Assembly (NCBI RefSeq): GCF_036507355.1
Contig: NZ_AP027883.1
Source: Escherichia coli
Lineage (GTDB): Bacteria > Pseudomonadota > Gammaproteobacteria > Enterobacterales > Enterobacteriaceae
Direction: 5' to 3' (one strand)
Length of the DNA: 4,958 nt
Shown here piece by piece: positions 1 through 4,958 of this stretch (position 1 is the first letter of the stretch; the number at the start of each line of letters is the position of its first letter). The translations under genes were made by a program, and so were the position numbers. Below the pieces are notes generated by a model. It saw nothing but the letters and a program-made list of their open reading frames with translations, ran no database searches and was not told the origin of the DNA.

Positions 1-124
1 AACCAGCCTCGACACCATCAAGAGCTGGGAAACCGGACGCCGTAACCCGACCGGACTGGCGGCGAAGGTACTGGCAACCATCCAGGCGAACCCGAAATTC
101 TTCCAGGAACTGGCGGCGCACTAA
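1..124 (+). CDS. higA: 3' part of a HigA2-like XRE-family helix-turn-helix antitoxin gene (5' part is at the window end; nt 1 is the third base of a codon split across the window boundary)
   Basis: Reading from nt 2 gives TSLDTIKSWETGRRNPTGLAAKVLATIQANPKFFQELAAH followed by TAA at 122-124. The SLDTIKSWETGRRNP stretch is the second helix and turn of a classic XRE-type HTH. It continues in frame from the partial ORF at 4798-4958. Confidence 0.75.
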   Translation, partial: TSLDTIKSWETGRRNPTGLAAKVLATIQANPKFFQELAAH

Positions 125-272
125 GCCGTTGTGACAGAAGGATTCGACAGGCGAGGCCGTTCGCGTGTAATTTAACGGCAACAGAAAAAACAAAGCCCCG
201 GAAATCATGTCATATCTTGGCGGATCGCATGATAACCAGGGCCAGGTCGAAACCTTGAAAGGATATTAGCAC

Positions 273-323
273 ATGAAACGTGCCAGACAACAGCCCGCCA
301 TAAGCGCAGGGCGAATTGAATAA
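273..323 (+). promoter_or_regulatory. Candidate 16-codon leader mini-ORF (MKRARQQPAISAGRIE) whose stop overlaps the rep start; possible translational-coupling element
   Basis: ATG at 273-275 preceded by AAGGA (259-263) at 9 nt spacing; in-frame TAA at 321-323 lies 3 nt after the TTG at 316 that opens the rep frame (aTTGAATAA). Purely sequence-based, no homology support. Confidence 0.25.
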
Positions 324-1284
324 CGCAGTACTCGAACTTTTCAACGACCGCTTACCGCACAAGCCGTACTTTTCGGACGATCTGCACTTTGGTGTACGCA
401 TTGCCGGTAAGGAACGCGCCATTCTGGCGAAATACATCCAGTTCAATCAGCCTCACGCCATGTTCTGGCTGGGATTCGACGTCGATCGCGCCGGTGCCGC
501 TATTGACTGGAGCGACCGCAATGCCCCCGCGCCGACACTGACGATCACCAACCCCGAAAACGGGCACGCGCACCTGCTTTACGCGCTGAAAACCCCGATA
601 CGTACCGCGCCAGACGGAAAAATGAAGCCATTACGCTACGCAGCTGCCGTAGAGAACGCGCTACGTAAAAAATTAGAGGCTGATGCGGGGTATTCGGGAC
701 TAATCTGCAAAAATCCGAACCACGGACACTGGAAAATTGCCGTATGGCAGCCGGAACTCTACACGCTGGACTGGTTGGCTGACTTTCTTGACCTGAACGC
801 AGCGAACGAAAAAGACATCGTTGATGACTACGGCTTAGGCCGTAACTGCACCTTGTTCGACAAGACCCGTAAGTGGGCATACCGCGCTATCCGTCAGGGC
901 TGGCCGGAGTATGAGCAGTGGCTGCAAGCCTGCTATGAGCGGGCTAGTGCTTACAACCTGCAATTTGCTGTGCCTCTGGATGAAAATGAGGTGAACGGGA
1001 TTGCTAAAAGCATTGCTAATTGGACAATATGCAATATGTCAGAATTCGAATTTAGAGAATACGTAAAGAAAACTCACACTTCAAAAATACAAGCTTTGAG
1101 AGGTAAGATTGGAGGTCGCAAAAGCAAAGGTGGAGGGCGTAGGAAAAATTCTAGTTGCCCCACATCAGAACGAACTACAAAGCCATGGGTTTTACTTGGT
1201 ATTAGTCGTTCGACTTATTACAGGAAAAAATCAAATAAATTTAAGGCTGATTTAAATGTCCAACCAGAAGAGTTTGAATATTGA
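316..1284 (+). CDS. rep: ColE2-type plasmid replication initiator Rep (plasmid-specific primase), probable TTG start
   Basis: 322-aa ORF. The N-terminal two thirds (LPHKPY, QPHAMFWLGFDVDR, NPENGHAHLLYAL, YSGLICKNPNHGHW, GLGRNCTLFDKTRKWAYR) and the C-terminal KPWVLLGISRSTYYRK match my recollection of the ColE2 Rep family. There is no in-frame ATG between the upstream stop (301-303) and residue 48, so TTG 316 is the only plausible start; the Shine-Dalgarno is weak (AGGG at 308-311). Confidence 0.85.
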   Translation: MNNAVLELFNDRLPHKPYFSDDLHFGVRIAGKERAILAKYIQFNQPHAMFWLGFDVDRAGAAIDWSDRNAPAPTLTITNPENGHAHLLYALKTPIRTAPDGKMKPLRYAAAVENALRKKLEADAGYSGLICKNPNHGHWKIAVWQPELYTLDWLADFLDLNAANEKDIVDDYGLGRNCTLFDKTRKWAYRAIRQGWPEYEQWLQACYERASAYNLQFAVPLDENEVNGIAKSIANWTICNMSEFEFREYVKKTHTSKIQALRGKIGGRKSKGGGRRKNSSCPTSERTTKPWVLLGISRSTYYRKKSNKFKADLNVQPEEFEY

Positions 1285-2275
1285 GTTGCTTAGGTGTCTC
1301 GCAGTAATTTCAGTGATTTTGATACATATGACCATGGGGCATTTTTACGATGCCTTGCTCATGCATGAAAATAAATTGTCATGGATTGTTAGTAATCTTT
1401 ACTACTCGTTAACTAGGTTTTGCGTCCCTATTTTTTTTATTATATCAGCTTATTTGGTTTTTAATAATAAATCCAATAAGAAATGGCATGAAAGATTAGT
1501 AAGACTTGGCTTGCCATTCGTCGCATGGTCGGCTATTTATTATGTGTACGGAGGAGGGCGCGATGCCTCGGAATTCCTAAAAAAAATACTAACAGAAAAC
1601 ACATCATTTCATCTTTGGTTTTTTCCTCCTTTTATAGGTTACACTCTTCTTCTTCCTGCGATCAAAAGTTTATTCATCAGTGAGAATAAAGATAAATTCA
1701 AATATATTTTCGTTATCATTTTTTTATCGTCCATCTTCACCCCTTCATTAATAATGCTGCTAAATTATTTTATTGGTGGCTATTCGTTTATCTATGGGAT
1801 AAGTAATTTTTGTTTAACGCTACCACCTTTGTTAGTATATGGTTTCGCATTTTCTTATTTTTACAAAAAAGTTAACGTGGTGAGTTGGTTTGTGGGGTAC
1901 TTAGTTATAATAATACTCAATATGATGATTAATATCATTATATCTAATAAGCTTGGCACACCTAATGAATGGTTTTATGGCTATACATCAGTTCTGGTTT
2001 TTATTTCTTCTTTTGTTTTATTCAACGTAGTCATGTCAATGAATCTTTCATTTCTTCCAGAAATGGCTGGTAAGGTTGTTTTGATTGTAGGACAGTGCTC
2101 ACTTGGAATATATTTATCTCATTGGTTGGTGTTTTTAATTTTGAGTAAGCATGGTTTATTGTTTTCTGGTAGAGCCATTGTTGATCCAATACTAAATACA
2201 GTAATAGTCTTTTGTGCTTCTATCGCTTTTACATTAGTAGTTCGAATTATTAAACCATTGCGCTATATCTTGTAG
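1256..2275 (+). CDS. Integral-membrane acyltransferase family 3 protein (AT3 / OafA-Oac-like O-acetyltransferase), substrate unknown
   Basis: 339-aa ORF, very AT-rich, hydrophobic throughout (multiple predicted transmembrane segments). N-terminal LLRCLAVISVILIH fits the AT3 first-helix signature R-x2-A-x3-V-x3-H, and FFIISAYLVF resembles the second conserved AT3 motif. ATG at 1256 is preceded by AAGG (1243-1246). The start overlaps the last 29 nt of rep. Stop TAG at 2273-2275. Confidence 0.8.
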   Translation: MSNQKSLNIELLRCLAVISVILIHMTMGHFYDALLMHENKLSWIVSNLYYSLTRFCVPIFFIISAYLVFNNKSNKKWHERLVRLGLPFVAWSAIYYVYGGGRDASEFLKKILTENTSFHLWFFPPFIGYTLLLPAIKSLFISENKDKFKYIFVIIFLSSIFTPSLIMLLNYFIGGYSFIYGISNFCLTLPPLLVYGFAFSYFYKKVNVVSWFVGYLVIIILNMMINIIISNKLGTPNEWFYGYTSVLVFISSFVLFNVVMSMNLSFLPEMAGKVVLIVGQCSLGIYLSHWLVFLILSKHGLLFSGRAIVDPILNTVIVFCASIAFTLVVRIIKPLRYIL

Positions 2276-2284
2276 CTCAATGGT

Positions 2285-2323
2285 TGTGAGACCAAAAACA
2301 AGCCTATATCAGATAACAGCCCT
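2285..2323. other. Probable ColE2-type replication origin (Rep binding and primer synthesis site)
   Basis: tgaGACCAaaaacAAGCCTaTATCAGATAACAGCcc closely resembles the ColE2-P9 minimal origin as I recall it (TGAGACCAGATAAGCCTTATCAGATAACAGCGCCC). In ColE2 plasmids the origin lies just downstream of rep; here it follows the cargo gene instead. Confidence 0.5.
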
Positions 2324-2346
2324 CTTTAGCAGAGGGCTGTTTTTTT
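2317..2346 (+). terminator. Rho-independent terminator closing the rep-acyltransferase transcription unit
   Basis: Perfect 9-bp stem CAGCCCTCT (2317-2325) / AGAGGGCTG (2331-2339) with 5-nt loop TTAGC, followed by a T7 run (2340-2346). Overlaps the 3' end of the origin-like sequence. Confidence 0.6.
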
Positions 2347-2379
2347 GCAGCCAGCACAGAACCTGACATACTGCACTAC

Positions 2380-2400
2380 TCTTTAAGCCAGTACACACAG
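2380..2400 (-). other. ColE1-like oriT nick-site core (bom-type)
   Basis: The - strand reads ...GTGTGTACTGGCTTAAAGAG..., containing TACTGGCTTAA, which is identical to the nick core of the ColE1/pBR322 bom region (gtaTACTGG/CTTAActatg). It lies about 125 bp upstream of mbeC; a short inverted repeat CGTC...GACG (2401-2414) is adjacent. Confidence 0.5.
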
Positions 2401-2468
2401 CGTCCCCTCTGACGAGGTGCCACCGTGACTGGTTCAGGGGGCTCGCCGCCCCCCGAAACCCCCGGCAT

Positions 2469-2510
2469 CCACTGCGAAAAATTCTCACAGTGGTGCGAAT
2501 TTTTTCTCAG
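2469..2510 (+). promoter_or_regulatory. Putative mob operon promoter/operator with repeated TGCGAA-N3/4-TTCTCA elements
   Basis: Direct repeat TGCGAAaaaTTCTCAcag (2473-2490) and TGCGAAttttTTCTCAg (2494-2510), each containing a GAA-W-TTC near-palindrome, plus inverted repeat CCACTG (2469-2474) / CAGTGG (2488-2493). Sits immediately upstream of mbeC; a ribbon-helix-helix MobC-type protein would be a natural binder. No clear sigma70 hexamers assigned. Confidence 0.3.
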
Positions 2511-2518
2511 CGGAGCCT

Positions 2519-2845
2519 ATGGAAAAGCGAACGAAAGAGATAAAAATCCGGCTTACCGAAACCGAGCATCAGCGACTGCTTGATCGCTGCGACCGGACTC
2601 ACCTTGCGGAGTGGCTTCGTCAGCTCGGTCTGGGTGAACATACCTCCCGCAAGCGCCGTGTGCCTGAGGTGGCGCCCGAACTGCTGCGGCAGGTCAGCGG
2701 TATTGGCAATAACCTGAACCAGATTGCCCGCCGCCTGAACCAGGCTGATTCCCTGACGCCTTCTGAACGTGTCTCGCTGCTCGTCGTACTGACCAGCCTT
2801 GATCGGCAGCTTGGCGACCTGCTGGAGCAGAACCGTGATCGTTAA
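2519..2845 (+). CDS. mbeC: Mobilisation accessory protein MbeC/MobC (relaxosome DNA-binding protein)
   Basis: 108-aa ORF. TETEHQRLLDRCD, the LLRQVSGIGNNLNQIARRLN block and the overall length fit the ColE1 MbeC / MobC family as I recall it. GGAG at 2512-2515. Stop TAA (2843-2845) overlaps the relaxase GTG start. Confidence 0.8.
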   Translation: MEKRTKEIKIRLTETEHQRLLDRCDRTHLAEWLRQLGLGEHTSRKRRVPEVAPELLRQVSGIGNNLNQIARRLNQADSLTPSERVSLLVVLTSLDRQLGDLLEQNRDR

Positions 2846-4403
2846 AATTCACTCACGAGGTGCGGGTTCCGGCAGCGGGCCGGTAGATTACCTGTTGGGT
2901 AAAGACCGGCAGCGTGAACAGGCCTGCGTACTGCGTGGCAATCCTGAACATGTGCGTGAGCTGATCGACGGCTGCAACTTTGCCCGCGCCTACACTTCCG
3001 GCGTGCTTTCATTCCAGGAACCTGACATTGCAGACGCCGAGAAATCGCGCCTGATGGACGAATGGGAGCACACGCTGCTGACCGGACTCGACCGCGACCA
3101 GTACGCCTGCCTGTGGGTAGAGCATCGCGACAAGGGACGGCTTGAGCTGAATTTTGTCATCCCGAACATCGAATTGCAGAGTGGAAAACGCCTGCAACCC
3201 TACTTTGACCGCGCCGACCGTCCCCGCGTCAACGCCTGGCAGACCCTGACCAACGACCGGCTGGGGCTGCGCGACCCGAATGACCCGACCTACCGCCGTC
3301 CGCTGACGCAGGCCAGCGATCTGCCCCGCGACAAACAGCAGGCGGCAGAGAAAATCACCGCCGGCCTGATGAACCTGATGCAGCAGGGCGTGATCCGCAG
3401 CCGGCAGGACGTGGTGACGCAGCTGGAAAGCTACGGCCTGACCGTAGCGCGGGAAACGAAAAGCAGCATCAGCATTGCCGATCCGGACGGCGGCCGAAAT
3501 ATCCGGCTGAAAGGAATGATTTATGAGCGAGATTTTAAATTTGGCGAAGGGCTTCGAGGAGAAATCGAAGCAGCAGGCGCAGGATACCGAGCAGAGCGTG
3601 AAGCGCGAGTTCGCGAGGCTGGAGACGTCTATCAGCGCGGAACTGCAATCAAGCTCGCAGAGCATCAGCAACGCTATCCGCGAGCAGAACGGCAGGCTGA
3701 CGGGCATGATCAGAACCTCCGTTTCAGCGGCGATGGCGTGGGTATTCCTCTGCTTCGCCCTGCTGATCGGCATCATGGGGGGGATAATCTGGTTTCAGGG
3801 CACGATCATCACCTCGCGCCTGAGCGAAATGGACAGCTACAGCCAGCAGCTGGCGAACCTGAAAGCGAAAAGCGGCGCGGGCGTGGCGATCTACAGCGAC
3901 GACAAGCACCGGAACACCTACATGGTGGTGCTGCCGAAGCAGGCGCACGGCGTGGAAACCTATACATCGACGACCGACAACACCGTAGTGAAATACACGG
4001 CGAAATAACCCCGTCAGAGCGCCCTGAAACGACACAGCGCGTTTTTAACACCGAGGATGACCAAAACCATGACCGAGATGGAAAAACAGCTTCTGAGCGC
4101 CTTAGAGAGCTTACAGACAAGCTACGAGCAACAGCAGCAGGCGTGGCAGGACAGCTACAGCAGCTTGCAGCACATGTTCGAGGCTACCTCACAGGCGCTG
4201 ACGCACAGCGACCGGGTGTGTCAGCACTTGAGCAGTCAGGTAGAGAGCTTGCGCGCGCAGGTCGAGAGCTTGAGCAGGAACGTCAGCCGCTTGATGCGTT
4301 GATCAGGCAGCACGACCGCGCCTACGCCGAGAAGCTGCGTGAGCAGCAGCCAGAGCCGGAGCCGCAGAAAAAAACGACCCGCTACTATGGCCCCTCGATG
4401 TGA
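2835..4403 (+). CDS. mbeA: MOB-HEN (ColE1 MbeA-type) conjugative relaxase; start placed at GTG 2835 rather than the ATG at 2799 in the ORF track
   Basis: From GTG 2835 the protein starts MIVKIHSRGAGSGSGPVDYLL, putting the catalytic Tyr at residue 19 and the HEN motif at H97/E104/N106 (LWVEHRDKGRLELNFVIPN), the same numbering as ColE1 MbeA. GTG 2835 is in frame with ATG 2799 and overlaps the mbeC stop (GTGATCGTTAA). 522 aa; the C-terminal half is low-complexity and charged. Confidence 0.85.
   Translation: MIVKIHSRGAGSGSGPVDYLLGKDRQREQACVLRGNPEHVRELIDGCNFARAYTSGVLSFQEPDIADAEKSRLMDEWEHTLLTGLDRDQYACLWVEHRDKGRLELNFVIPNIELQSGKRLQPYFDRADRPRVNAWQTLTNDRLGLRDPNDPTYRRPLTQASDLPRDKQQAAEKITAGLMNLMQQGVIRSRQDVVTQLESYGLTVARETKSSISIADPDGGRNIRLKGMIYERDFKFGEGLRGEIEAAGAGYRAEREARVREAGDVYQRGTAIKLAEHQQRYPRAERQADGHDQNLRFSGDGVGIPLLRPADRHHGGDNLVSGHDHHLAPERNGQLQPAAGEPESEKRRGRGDLQRRQAPEHLHGGAAEAGARRGNLYIDDRQHRSEIHGEITPSERPETTQRVFNTEDDQNHDRDGKTASERLRELTDKLRATAAGVAGQLQQLAAHVRGYLTGADAQRPGVSALEQSGRELARAGRELEQERQPLDALIRQHDRAYAEKLREQQPEPEPQKKTTRYYGPSM
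3523..4008 (+). CDS. mbeB: MbeB-like mobilisation protein, nested in the +1 frame inside mbeA
   Basis: 161-aa ORF with AAGGA (3511-3515) 7 nt before the ATG; a charged N-terminal region followed by one hydrophobic segment (AAMAWVFLCFALLIGIMGGIIWF). Position and architecture match ColE1 mbeB; call is positional/architectural rather than from verified sequence identity. Confidence 0.6.
   Translation: MSEILNLAKGFEEKSKQQAQDTEQSVKREFARLETSISAELQSSSQSISNAIREQNGRLTGMIRTSVSAAMAWVFLCFALLIGIMGGIIWFQGTIITSRLSEMDSYSQQLANLKAKSGAGVAIYSDDKHRNTYMVVLPKQAHGVETYTSTTDNTVVKYTAK
4069..4302 (+). CDS. mbeD: MbeD-like mobilisation protein, nested in the +1 frame inside the 3' part of mbeA
   Basis: ORF track starts at ATG 4057 (no spacing after GAGG). 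The in-frame ATG 4069 (MTEMEKQLLSALESLQ...) has GAGGA 11 nt upstream and better fits the ColE1 MbeD start as I recall it. Coiled-coil-like repeats (QVESLRAQVESLSRNV). Same frame as mbeB. Confidence 0.55.
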   Translation: MTEMEKQLLSALESLQTSYEQQQQAWQDSYSSLQHMFEATSQALTHSDRVCQHLSSQVESLRAQVESLSRNVSRLMR

Positions 4404-4404
4404 C

Positions 4405-4460
4405 CGCTTTTCCGAAATCAGAATTAAGTGTACTATGTACTCCGTTAAAAACAGGAGACA
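4405..4460 (+). promoter_or_regulatory. Putative higBA promoter/operator region
   Basis: 60-bp gap between the mbeA stop and the higB start contains TTAAGTGTACTATGTACTCCGTTAA, with a GTAC-TAT-GTAC dyad (4427-4440) overlapping a possible -10 (TACTAT 4431-4436), then a strong AGGAG (4453-4457) 6 nt before the GTG. Toxin-antitoxin operators are typically palindromes overlapping the promoter. Confidence 0.3.
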
Positions 4461-4463
4461 GCC

Positions 4464-4796
4464 GTGAGTCACGCGATTGAGTTTATCGAGACCCCGATGT
4501 TTACCCGTCAGATAAAACAGATCGCCACGGATGAAGAACTCAGGGAGCTGCAAAAGACGCTGATTGAGTCGCCGGACAAAGGCGATCTCATTCAGAAAAC
4601 CGGCGGGCTGCGCAAAATCAGGATGGCGACGGGCAACCAGGGAAAAAGCGGCAGCGTGAGGGTGATTTACTTTCTGGCCACCGCCGAGGTGATCTATCTG
4701 GTGATGGCCTACCCGAAAAGCACCAAAGACAGCCTGACGGACGCGGAAAAAGCCGCGCTGAAGACGCTGACCCAACAACTGAAAGACGAGGTGTGA
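4464..4796 (+). CDS. higB: HigB2-like (RelE/ParE superfamily) type II toxin, GTG start
   Basis: 110-aa ORF. TGGLRKIRMATGNQGKSGSVRVIYF and the downstream AEVIYLVMAYPKSTKDSLTD match the HigB-2 toxin family (GTGGLRKIR...GKRGGSRIIYYF...YLL..Y.K pattern) as recalled from Vibrio HigB-2. Toxin-first gene order is typical of hig modules. Stop TGA 4794-4796, 1 nt before the antitoxin ATG. Confidence 0.8.
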   Translation: MSHAIEFIETPMFTRQIKQIATDEELRELQKTLIESPDKGDLIQKTGGLRKIRMATGNQGKSGSVRVIYFLATAEVIYLVMAYPKSTKDSLTDAEKAALKTLTQQLKDEV

Positions 4797-4797
4797 C

Positions 4798-4958
4798 ATG
4801 AGTTTTTTTGACGAGCTGAAAGCATCGCTGGAAGAAGCCGTTGAAATCAAAAACGGCGTCAGAGAGCCTGCCCGCGTCACCCGTTACGAGCTGGCAGACG
4901 TGAAAGCCATCAGGGCACAGCTGAACGTATCTCAGAGCGAGATGGCGAAAGTGCTGGG
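4798..4958 (+). CDS. higA: 5' part of the HigA2-like XRE-family HTH antitoxin gene (runs off the window end and continues at nt 1)
   Basis: MSFFDELKASLEEAVEIKNGVREPARVTRYELADVKAIRAQLNVSQSEMAKVLG...; LNVSQSEMAKVLG is the first helix of an XRE HTH. 53 complete codons plus GG; with nt 1 (A) this makes GGA (Gly) and continues in frame into the 1-124 fragment. Confidence 0.8.
   Translation, partial: MSFFDELKASLEEAVEIKNGVREPARVTRYELADVKAIRAQLNVSQSEMAKVL

Follow-up and report, generated by a model that had tools for sequence, protein, structure and literature searches.

The window (the whole stretch of DNA that was analysed, 4958 bases) is a complete small circular plasmid opened inside its antitoxin gene, since the junction between the window end and the window start is contiguous in near-identical plasmids. 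In NZ_CP092261.1 (Salmonella, 5632 bp) the counterpart of window 2519-4958 (98%) runs directly into that of window 1-1025 (94%). The features are listed in Table 1. The layout of the mob genes is that of the MOBHEN modules of Francia et al. as summarised in PMC5703827, with mobC directly upstream of mobA and further genes nested in mobA.

Table 1. Features of the plasmid and of its candidate oriT region (window coordinates). Identities are mean pairwise values for seven plasmids, the overall region being 79-95% identical.
Feature	Position	Strand	Basis or remark	Mean pairwise identity
ColE2-type rep	316-1284		Pfam Replicase and PriCT_1	
Acyl_transf_3 gene, low-GC, cargo	1256-2275		overlaps the end of rep	
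ColE2-like ori block CCTATATCAGATAACAGC	2286-2320	+	neighbour of the oriT, outside it	
Terminator-like hairpin with T run	2315-2347	+	terminator scan; overlaps the ori block	
Flagged region	2350-2518		between the ori block and mobC	
Spacer left of the nick core	2350-2382			0.35
Conserved nick block TTAAGCCAGTACACAC (+ strand reading)	2383-2398	-	15/16 identical to ColE1 1461-1476	0.96
Candidate nick-containing hairpin, predicted transferred strand	2388-2432	-	fold and covariation	
Shared block CGTGACTGGTTCAGGG	2424-2439	-	15/16 identical to ColE1 1490-1505	
GTGACTGG and inverted repeat	2424-2457			0.97
Inverted repeat IR-A TTCAGGGGGC / GCCCCCCGAA	2433-2442/2448-2457	-	10 nt, 90% complementary, 5-nt loop	
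Shared block CCCGGCATCCACT	2461-2473	+	12/13 identical to ColE1 1561-1573	
Two tandem imperfect palindromes before mobC, nested in a 14-nt outer inverted repeat	2468-2514	+	repeat search	0.83
mobC/mbeC, relaxosome accessory protein	2519-2845	+	Pfam NikA-like 1.4e-11, MobC 6.6e-10	
MbeA-type (MOBHEN / MOBP5) relaxase gene, GTG start	2835-4403	+	NCBIfam relax_MbeA_E1	
mbeB-like gene nested in the relaxase gene	3523-4008	+	Pfam MbeB_N 8.3e-18	
mbeD-like gene nested in the relaxase gene	4057-4302	+	Pfam MbeD_MobD 2.3e-23; NCBIfam plas_excl_MbeD 1.6e-30	
RelE/HigB-type toxin gene	4464-4796			
Antitoxin gene	spans the window ends			

The replicon is of the ColE2 type. Its Rep protein matches Pfam Replicase (2.8e-46) together with PriCT_1 and aligns over its full length with the Rep protein of pMUT2, most columns being identical. 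Rep residues 176-305 match PDB 3vw4 ('Rep', E 5.7e-29), which we take to be the DNA-binding domain of ColE2-P9 Rep. A structure of the ColE2-P9 Rep DNA-binding domain exists (PMC4980987), and pMUT2 has been described as ColE2-like (PMC11056357). On alignment among relatives, the putative ori block is conserved in all the ColE2-like ones, including pMUT2. A low-GC insert parts it from rep, as in pHW66 (PMC2831885). At 194-305 (+) a sub-threshold match to Rfam PK-repBA was observed (39.8 bits against a gathering threshold of 45, E 2.3e-6), and a weak CopA-like antisense match lies at 187-270 (-). PK-repBA is the pseudoknot of a rep regulatory leader, and the two matches probably represent the antisense-controlled rep leader of the ColE2-type replicon.

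Past window 1025 the rep DNA is low in GC and unalignable with the closest backbones. The boundary of the cargo-swap module therefore lies inside rep and not after it. The C-terminal DNA-binding part of Rep (approximately residues 235-322; window 1000-1284) is conserved as protein, matching PDB 3vw4. The cargo slot between rep and ori (1026-2285) consists of the 3' end of rep and the gene of an Acyl_transf_3 membrane acyltransferase with about 31% GC. No DNA match to 1026-2285 was found in PLSDB, and all PLSDB matches of the Acyl_transf_3 protein are at most 29% identical. In relatives the same slot holds other genes, many of them anti-phage (AIPR, dCTP deaminase, KwaB-like, TIR, AAA ATPase, DUF262, methyltransferase). 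It resembles the low-GC inserts described for pHW66 and pUB6060 (PMC2831885).

All four mob genes are intact, with homologues of MobC, MbeB and MbeD accompanying the relaxase. The latter shares 43% of its residues with ColE1 MbeA along the entire protein and, by a hand count from the alignment, approximately 62% within the first 240. It scores 476.7 bits (E 1e-142) with NCBIfam relax_MbeA_E1, under the strict 500-bit cut-off of that model. The first-pass annotation had called it a HEN-motif relaxase; it is indeed of the MbeA type, and its catalytic residues Y19, H97, E104 and N106 align with those of MbeA without gaps and at identical positions. None of the solved structures matches the relaxase by sequence.

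The nick core TACTGGCTTAA occupies 2393..2383 on the - strand. This is its sole exact copy within the window, and it is absent from 200 of 200 dinucleotide-preserving shuffles; when two mismatches are tolerated, one further match appears in the window, a poor one inside rep. ColE1 (NC_001371) contains the identical 11-mer once, at 1471..1461, also on the - strand. Thus the core of ColE1/pBR322 type that had been recognised on the - strand at first pass is exact, unique and identical in ColE1. According to PMC5703827, CTGGCTTA of the ColE1 oriT holds the relaxase cleavage site. Varsaki et al. (2003) reportedly placed the bond cut in ColE1 at CTGG/CTTA. By homology, we take nic here to be the same CTGG/CTTA, between G2388 and C2387 of the - strand. 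A degenerate second copy of the core is present 37 bp leftward (AGCCAGCACA at 2349-2358, compared with AGCCAGTACA at 2386-2395); its counterpart in the Soerenga plasmid is AGCCAGTATA, which is nearer to ColE1. This direct repeat was considered as a second nick site and dropped, because a 9/10 match in 255 bases is about what chance would give (a rough estimate made without a tool).

An alignment of the flagged region with the ColE1 oriT had been suggested together with the first-pass annotation. Window 2350-2518 was compared with the oriT of NC_001371 by local alignment, using 1000 dinucleotide shuffles. The Smith-Waterman score of 33 lies above all shuffles (16.7 +/- 2.3, maximum 28; z approximately 7), and the top-scoring position across all of ColE1 is its oriT. 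Three shared blocks are collinear between the two plasmids (Table 1), and outside them identity to ColE1 is low overall. Both plasmids have the blocks GTGACTGGkTCAGGG and CCCGGCATCC, an inverted repeat 5' of nic, and a CCAGT/ACTGG pairing that takes in the nick core. To the right of the 11-mer, the + strand of ColE1 encodes the MobC-family protein (1867-2190) and MbeA (from 2180). With the core on the - strand and the mob genes on the + strand, the strand relationship is therefore the same as in the window, the nicked strand being opposite the mob coding strand in both. The likeness extends to the relaxase residues Y19 and H97/E104/N106 and to the gene order mobC-mobA with mbeB and mbeD nested.

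However, ColE1 differs in several respects. There, rop (1612-1803, - strand) alone separates the oriT from the mob genes, whereas here the oriT adjoins mobC. Between the nick block and GTGACTGG the window has approximately 12 bases more than ColE1, and these form an additional CCTC/GAGG stem. The inverted repeat has 8 bp in ColE1 and 10 bp here, with a different sequence. The tandem TGCGAA/TTCTCA palindromes of the window are not seen in ColE1, the mob proteins are only 43% identical, and the replicon of ColE1 is of the RNA II/RNA I type instead of the ColE2 type.

A query of 251 bases around the oriT matches 465 PLSDB records, mostly from Escherichia, Salmonella and Klebsiella; 146 of them match over at least 80% of its length. 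Alignments were made of nine and then fourteen copies; ColE1, Edwardsiella pEI2 and pMUT2 of E. coli Nissle 1917 are among them. In 14 of the 14 sequences, conservation along the nicked strand ends 4-5 nt 3' of the predicted nick. Judged from the alignments, this one-sided profile is the asymmetry expected of a relaxase target with its recognition elements 5' of nic. As conservation halts just 3' of the nick, the predicted functional oriT starts at 2383, not at 2350. The extent given at first pass, 2350-2518, thus stands from 2383 rightwards, and its leftmost part, 2350-2382, is a non-conserved spacer (Table 1). Intermediate, short-form oriTs sit beside ColE2 origins.

The - strand of the region folds into two adjacent hairpins (-22.9 kcal/mol, z -3.1), a stability reached by none of 200 shuffles. 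One is formed by IR-A, which starts approximately 45 nt 5' of nic on the nicked strand and folds as a 10-bp stem. The other contains the nick. Its outer stem pairs CCAGT (2432..2428) with ACTGG (2392..2388) of the nick core, its inner stem pairs CACGG (2427..2423) with CTGTG (2400..2396), and its apical stem is CCTC/GAGG (2406-2409/2414-2417), retained in every long-form relative. ColE1 retains the outer CCAGT/ACTGG pairing and a shorter version of IR-A. Two GC-rich hairpins had been noted at first pass. The GGGGG/CCCCC pair (2437-2441/2449-2453) is present and forms the centre of the longer IR-A. The CGTC/GACG pair (2401-2404/2411-2414) is also present, but it has been lost in most relatives and for that reason was rejected as a functional element; we consider it incidental. 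The Rfam scan gave no match in the oriT region.

The stems covary. Among the 14 sequences five pairs are changed on both sides, compared with 1.9 in shuffles, and 2 of 500 shuffles reach five; slid controls gave much lower counts. The pair 2424:2399 is A-T in five of the 14 sequences; three others have G-C, and a further three, the window among them, have G-T. Two pairs of IR-A change on both sides (GC to AT, CG to TA) in pYLPK13b and pEC545_5, so that the top of the stem is AT/TA in these two plasmids and GC/CG in most sequences. The pattern supports selection for symmetry and would be compatible either with a hairpin of single-stranded DNA or with a dimer-bound palindrome in duplex DNA. It is no proof of a hairpin, because a dimeric protein on duplex DNA would also keep symmetric changes.

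The palindromes next to mobC have four half-sites: TGCGAA at 2473 and 2494, and TTCTCA at 2482 and 2504. The first palindrome is TGCGAA-N3-TTCTCA (2473-2487), the second TGCGAA-N4-TTCTCA (2494-2509), and their spacing is 21-22 bp. These are the TGCGAA-N-TTCTCA repeats already reported beside mbeC at first pass, and they lie where they had been placed. Relatives keep these half-sites, and plasmids of the pMUT2 lineage have a perfect version of the first palindrome (TGCGAA..TTCGCA). The adjoining gene encodes a MobC protein with an N-terminal ribbon-helix-helix/NikA-like domain and a MobC motif (Pfam), 43% identical to ColE1 MbeC (E 6e-27). We infer that the palindromes are candidate binding sites, or an operator, for this ribbon-helix-helix protein. 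Accessory proteins of the MobC kind bind palindromes at oriT, and MobC of RA3 also represses its own operon (PMC4175270). As here, in RA3 (IncU) and R64 the ribbon-helix-helix accessory gene is directly upstream of the relaxase gene, and RA3 MobC and R64 NikA bind an imperfect palindrome beside oriT; the MobC of the window matches the NikA-like family of Pfam. However, RA3 and R64 have relaxases of other clades and other nick sequences, and thus the analogy bears only on the putative role of the palindromes. A sigma-70 consensus scan of 2250-2600 gave no promoter, hence none between the oriT and mobC, so that an operator role has no promoter to support it. The best candidate of a relaxed scan, TTTGCA-17-CATACT preceded by a TG, lies left of the nick at 2344-2372; with 8/12 matches it was too weak and was rejected.

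It is likely that the region from 2383 to approximately 2518 serves a small mobilisable plasmid as its oriT and is a homologue of that of ColE1 (bom); from the sequence comparisons we put the probability at about 0.86. The basis for this reading is homology, orientation, the conservation profile, compensatory changes and protein families. The exact bond cut, the binding of MobC to the palindromes and function in vivo are predicted by analogy. Together with mobC, the relaxase, MbeB, MbeD and the ColE2-type Rep, this oriT makes up the complete ColE1-type mobilisation module on a ColE2-type replicon that the first-pass annotation had described.

The following mechanism may be suggested. MobC dimers would bind the tandem palindromes at 2468-2514 beside their own gene and help to open the DNA. 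The MbeA-type relaxase would recognise the - strand through the inverted repeat at 2433-2457 and the hairpin with the nick core in its 3' arm. Tyr19 would cut 5'-CTGG/CTTA-3' between 2388 and 2387, with H97, E104 and N106 holding the metal ion, and the relaxase would remain on the 5' end (C2387) and be exported via the type IV secretion system of a helper conjugative plasmid. The - strand would be transferred 5' to 3', with the ColE2-type ori, the cargo gene and rep going first; given a nick at 2388/2387 on this strand and transfer towards lower coordinates, the mob operon would enter the recipient last. The circle would be closed by the relaxase when it meets the regenerated nick site. ColE1 itself is mobilised by IncF, IncP, IncI and IncW plasmids (PMC9282650).

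One possibility is that the oriT is a decayed, non-functional relic of the ColE1 type through which the plasmid can no longer be mobilised. The spacer is 12 nt longer than that of ColE1 and the inverted repeat is unlike that of ColE1 in sequence, some relatives with an oriT have no mob genes and are typed as non-mobilizable, and two relatives in the 14-sequence alignment read CTGA, not CTGG, at the nick. However, diverged plasmids are 96-97% identical in the nick block and the inverted repeat but 35% in the adjoining spacer, the stems contain compensatory changes, the four mob genes are intact with their catalytic residues kept, and the nick core of the window is exactly that of ColE1. Thus decay seems improbable. 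It is still harder to accept that the stretch acts chiefly as promoter and operator for the operon of mobC and the relaxase gene, with an incidental core match and the true nick elsewhere. Such a role would agree with the palindromes of repressor-binding type adjoining mobC and with the ability of MobC accessory proteins to autoregulate their operon, as in RA3 (PMC4175270), but it would leave unexplained an 11-mer unexpected by chance and two further collinear ColE1 blocks. Moreover, no other copy of the core exists at two or fewer mismatches save the poor one in rep, and 2250-2600 is without a consensus promoter. The promoter and oriT roles are in any case compatible, because oriT commonly overlaps mob promoters.

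A real oriT might also be cut at another place, for example in the G-rich inverted-repeat region as in CloDF13, whose nic is 5'-GGGTG/GTCGGG-3' (quoted in PMC5935869). The - strand at 2465..2450 reads GGGGGTTTCGGGGGGC, resembling the nick context of CloDF13, and ColE1 has GGGTGTCGGGGC at the equivalent place. On the other hand, the relaxase is of the MbeA type with Y19 and HEN, not of the CloDF13 type, conservation is lost directly 3' of CTGG/CTTA as a nick at that position predicts, and mosaic plasmids change parentage inside the nick core; such a cut is therefore highly unlikely. Finally, the conserved block, with the ColE2-like ori block a mere 60 bp or so away, could belong to the ColE2-type replicon, for instance as a signal for lagging-strand priming or termination; small plasmids that keep the ori and the block without mob genes would fit this. 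We find it the hardest reading to credit, as the segment 2383-2454 occurs without a ColE2 ori on the ColE1-type replicon p805-3, and its homologue in ColE1, the oriT, serves another type of replicon. Because the oriT block accompanies other replicons, for example that of p805-3 (ColE1 type), it constitutes a module distinct from the ColE2 ori.

Near-identical backbones occur in PLSDB, for example in NZ_CP092261.1 (Salmonella), NZ_CP041098.1 (K. pneumoniae) and NC_017723.1 (ETEC H10407, 5.8 kb). Identity to the window is 95-98% across the toxin-antitoxin pair, the mob genes, rep, ori and oriT, and only the cargo segment 1026-2285 differs. No mobilisation data were found in the literature on the small plasmids of ETEC H10407. 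The plan of the plasmid is also that of pMUT2 and of pUB6060/pHW66: a ColE2-type rep, a variable low-GC cargo, the ori, an oriT of the ColE1 superfamily and mobC/A/B/D. Of these, pHW66 and pUB6060 are ColE2-like, have a low-GC insert that separates repA from oriV, and carry an oriT of the ColE1 superfamily with mobA-D (PMC2831885); ColE2-like plasmids with a ColE1-superfamily oriT and mobABCD have been described (PMC2831885, PMC11056357). The oriT core of pMUT2 is nearly identical to window 2383-2465. However, the backbones of this group are approximately 72-79% identical to that of the window in DNA and the spacer left of the nick is unrelated; in pMUT2 the cargo is KwaB-like and not Acyl_transf_3, and the toxin-antitoxin pair also differs.

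Thus a ColE1-type oriT and mob module on a ColE2-type replicon is a correct but ordinary assignment, already known, because the combination has been published for pMUT2, pUB6060 and pHW66 and is present in hundreds of PLSDB plasmids. Publications on this design go back to about 2001-2010, near-identical oriTs have been sequenced in hundreds of plasmids from Enterobacteriaceae, and a specialist would find nothing surprising here. It does allow confident annotation. The plasmid is predicted to be mobilisable by co-resident conjugative plasmids, so that its unusual acyltransferase cargo could spread. By-products for work on MOBHEN relaxosomes are the predicted nick position, the oriT boundary at 2383 and the candidate MobC palindromes.

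Natural mosaics join parts of these modules. In p805-3 (switch at 801-811) the sequence is ColE1-like up to ColE1 1471 and continues as an oriT of the window type (2383-2454), followed by part of a rep gene of the ColE2 type (window 637-1029). In pSFxv_2 (398-412) and pBC16UNK2 (approximately 221-281) the flank of a ColE2 ori extends up to the nick block and is followed by a short oriT of the ColE1 type. In all three cases examined parentage changes inside the 11-16 bp nick block. The mosaic joints hint at, and would be compatible with, relaxase-mediated exchange at nic. It is a tentative proposal, and on balance an unlikely one, that the nick site doubles as a joint at which strand exchange by relaxases between different oriTs reshuffles replicons and mob modules. 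The covarying hairpin carries the predicted nick in its 3' arm, which to our knowledge would be a recognition geometry new for MbeA-type relaxases.

Three tiny plasmids, pYLPK13b (3056 bp), pBC16UNK2 (2476 bp) and pEC545_5 (3164 bp), retain a ColE2-like ori and the oriT core, have no annotated mob genes, and are typed as non-mobilizable by MOB-suite. Such plasmids could be mobilised in trans by the relaxases of co-resident relatives. Many large plasmids (37-310 kb) that are typed as conjugative contain a copy of the 60-bp ori/terminator segment 2286-2346 at 90% identity; these copies may represent remnants of small replicons or cointegrated ones.
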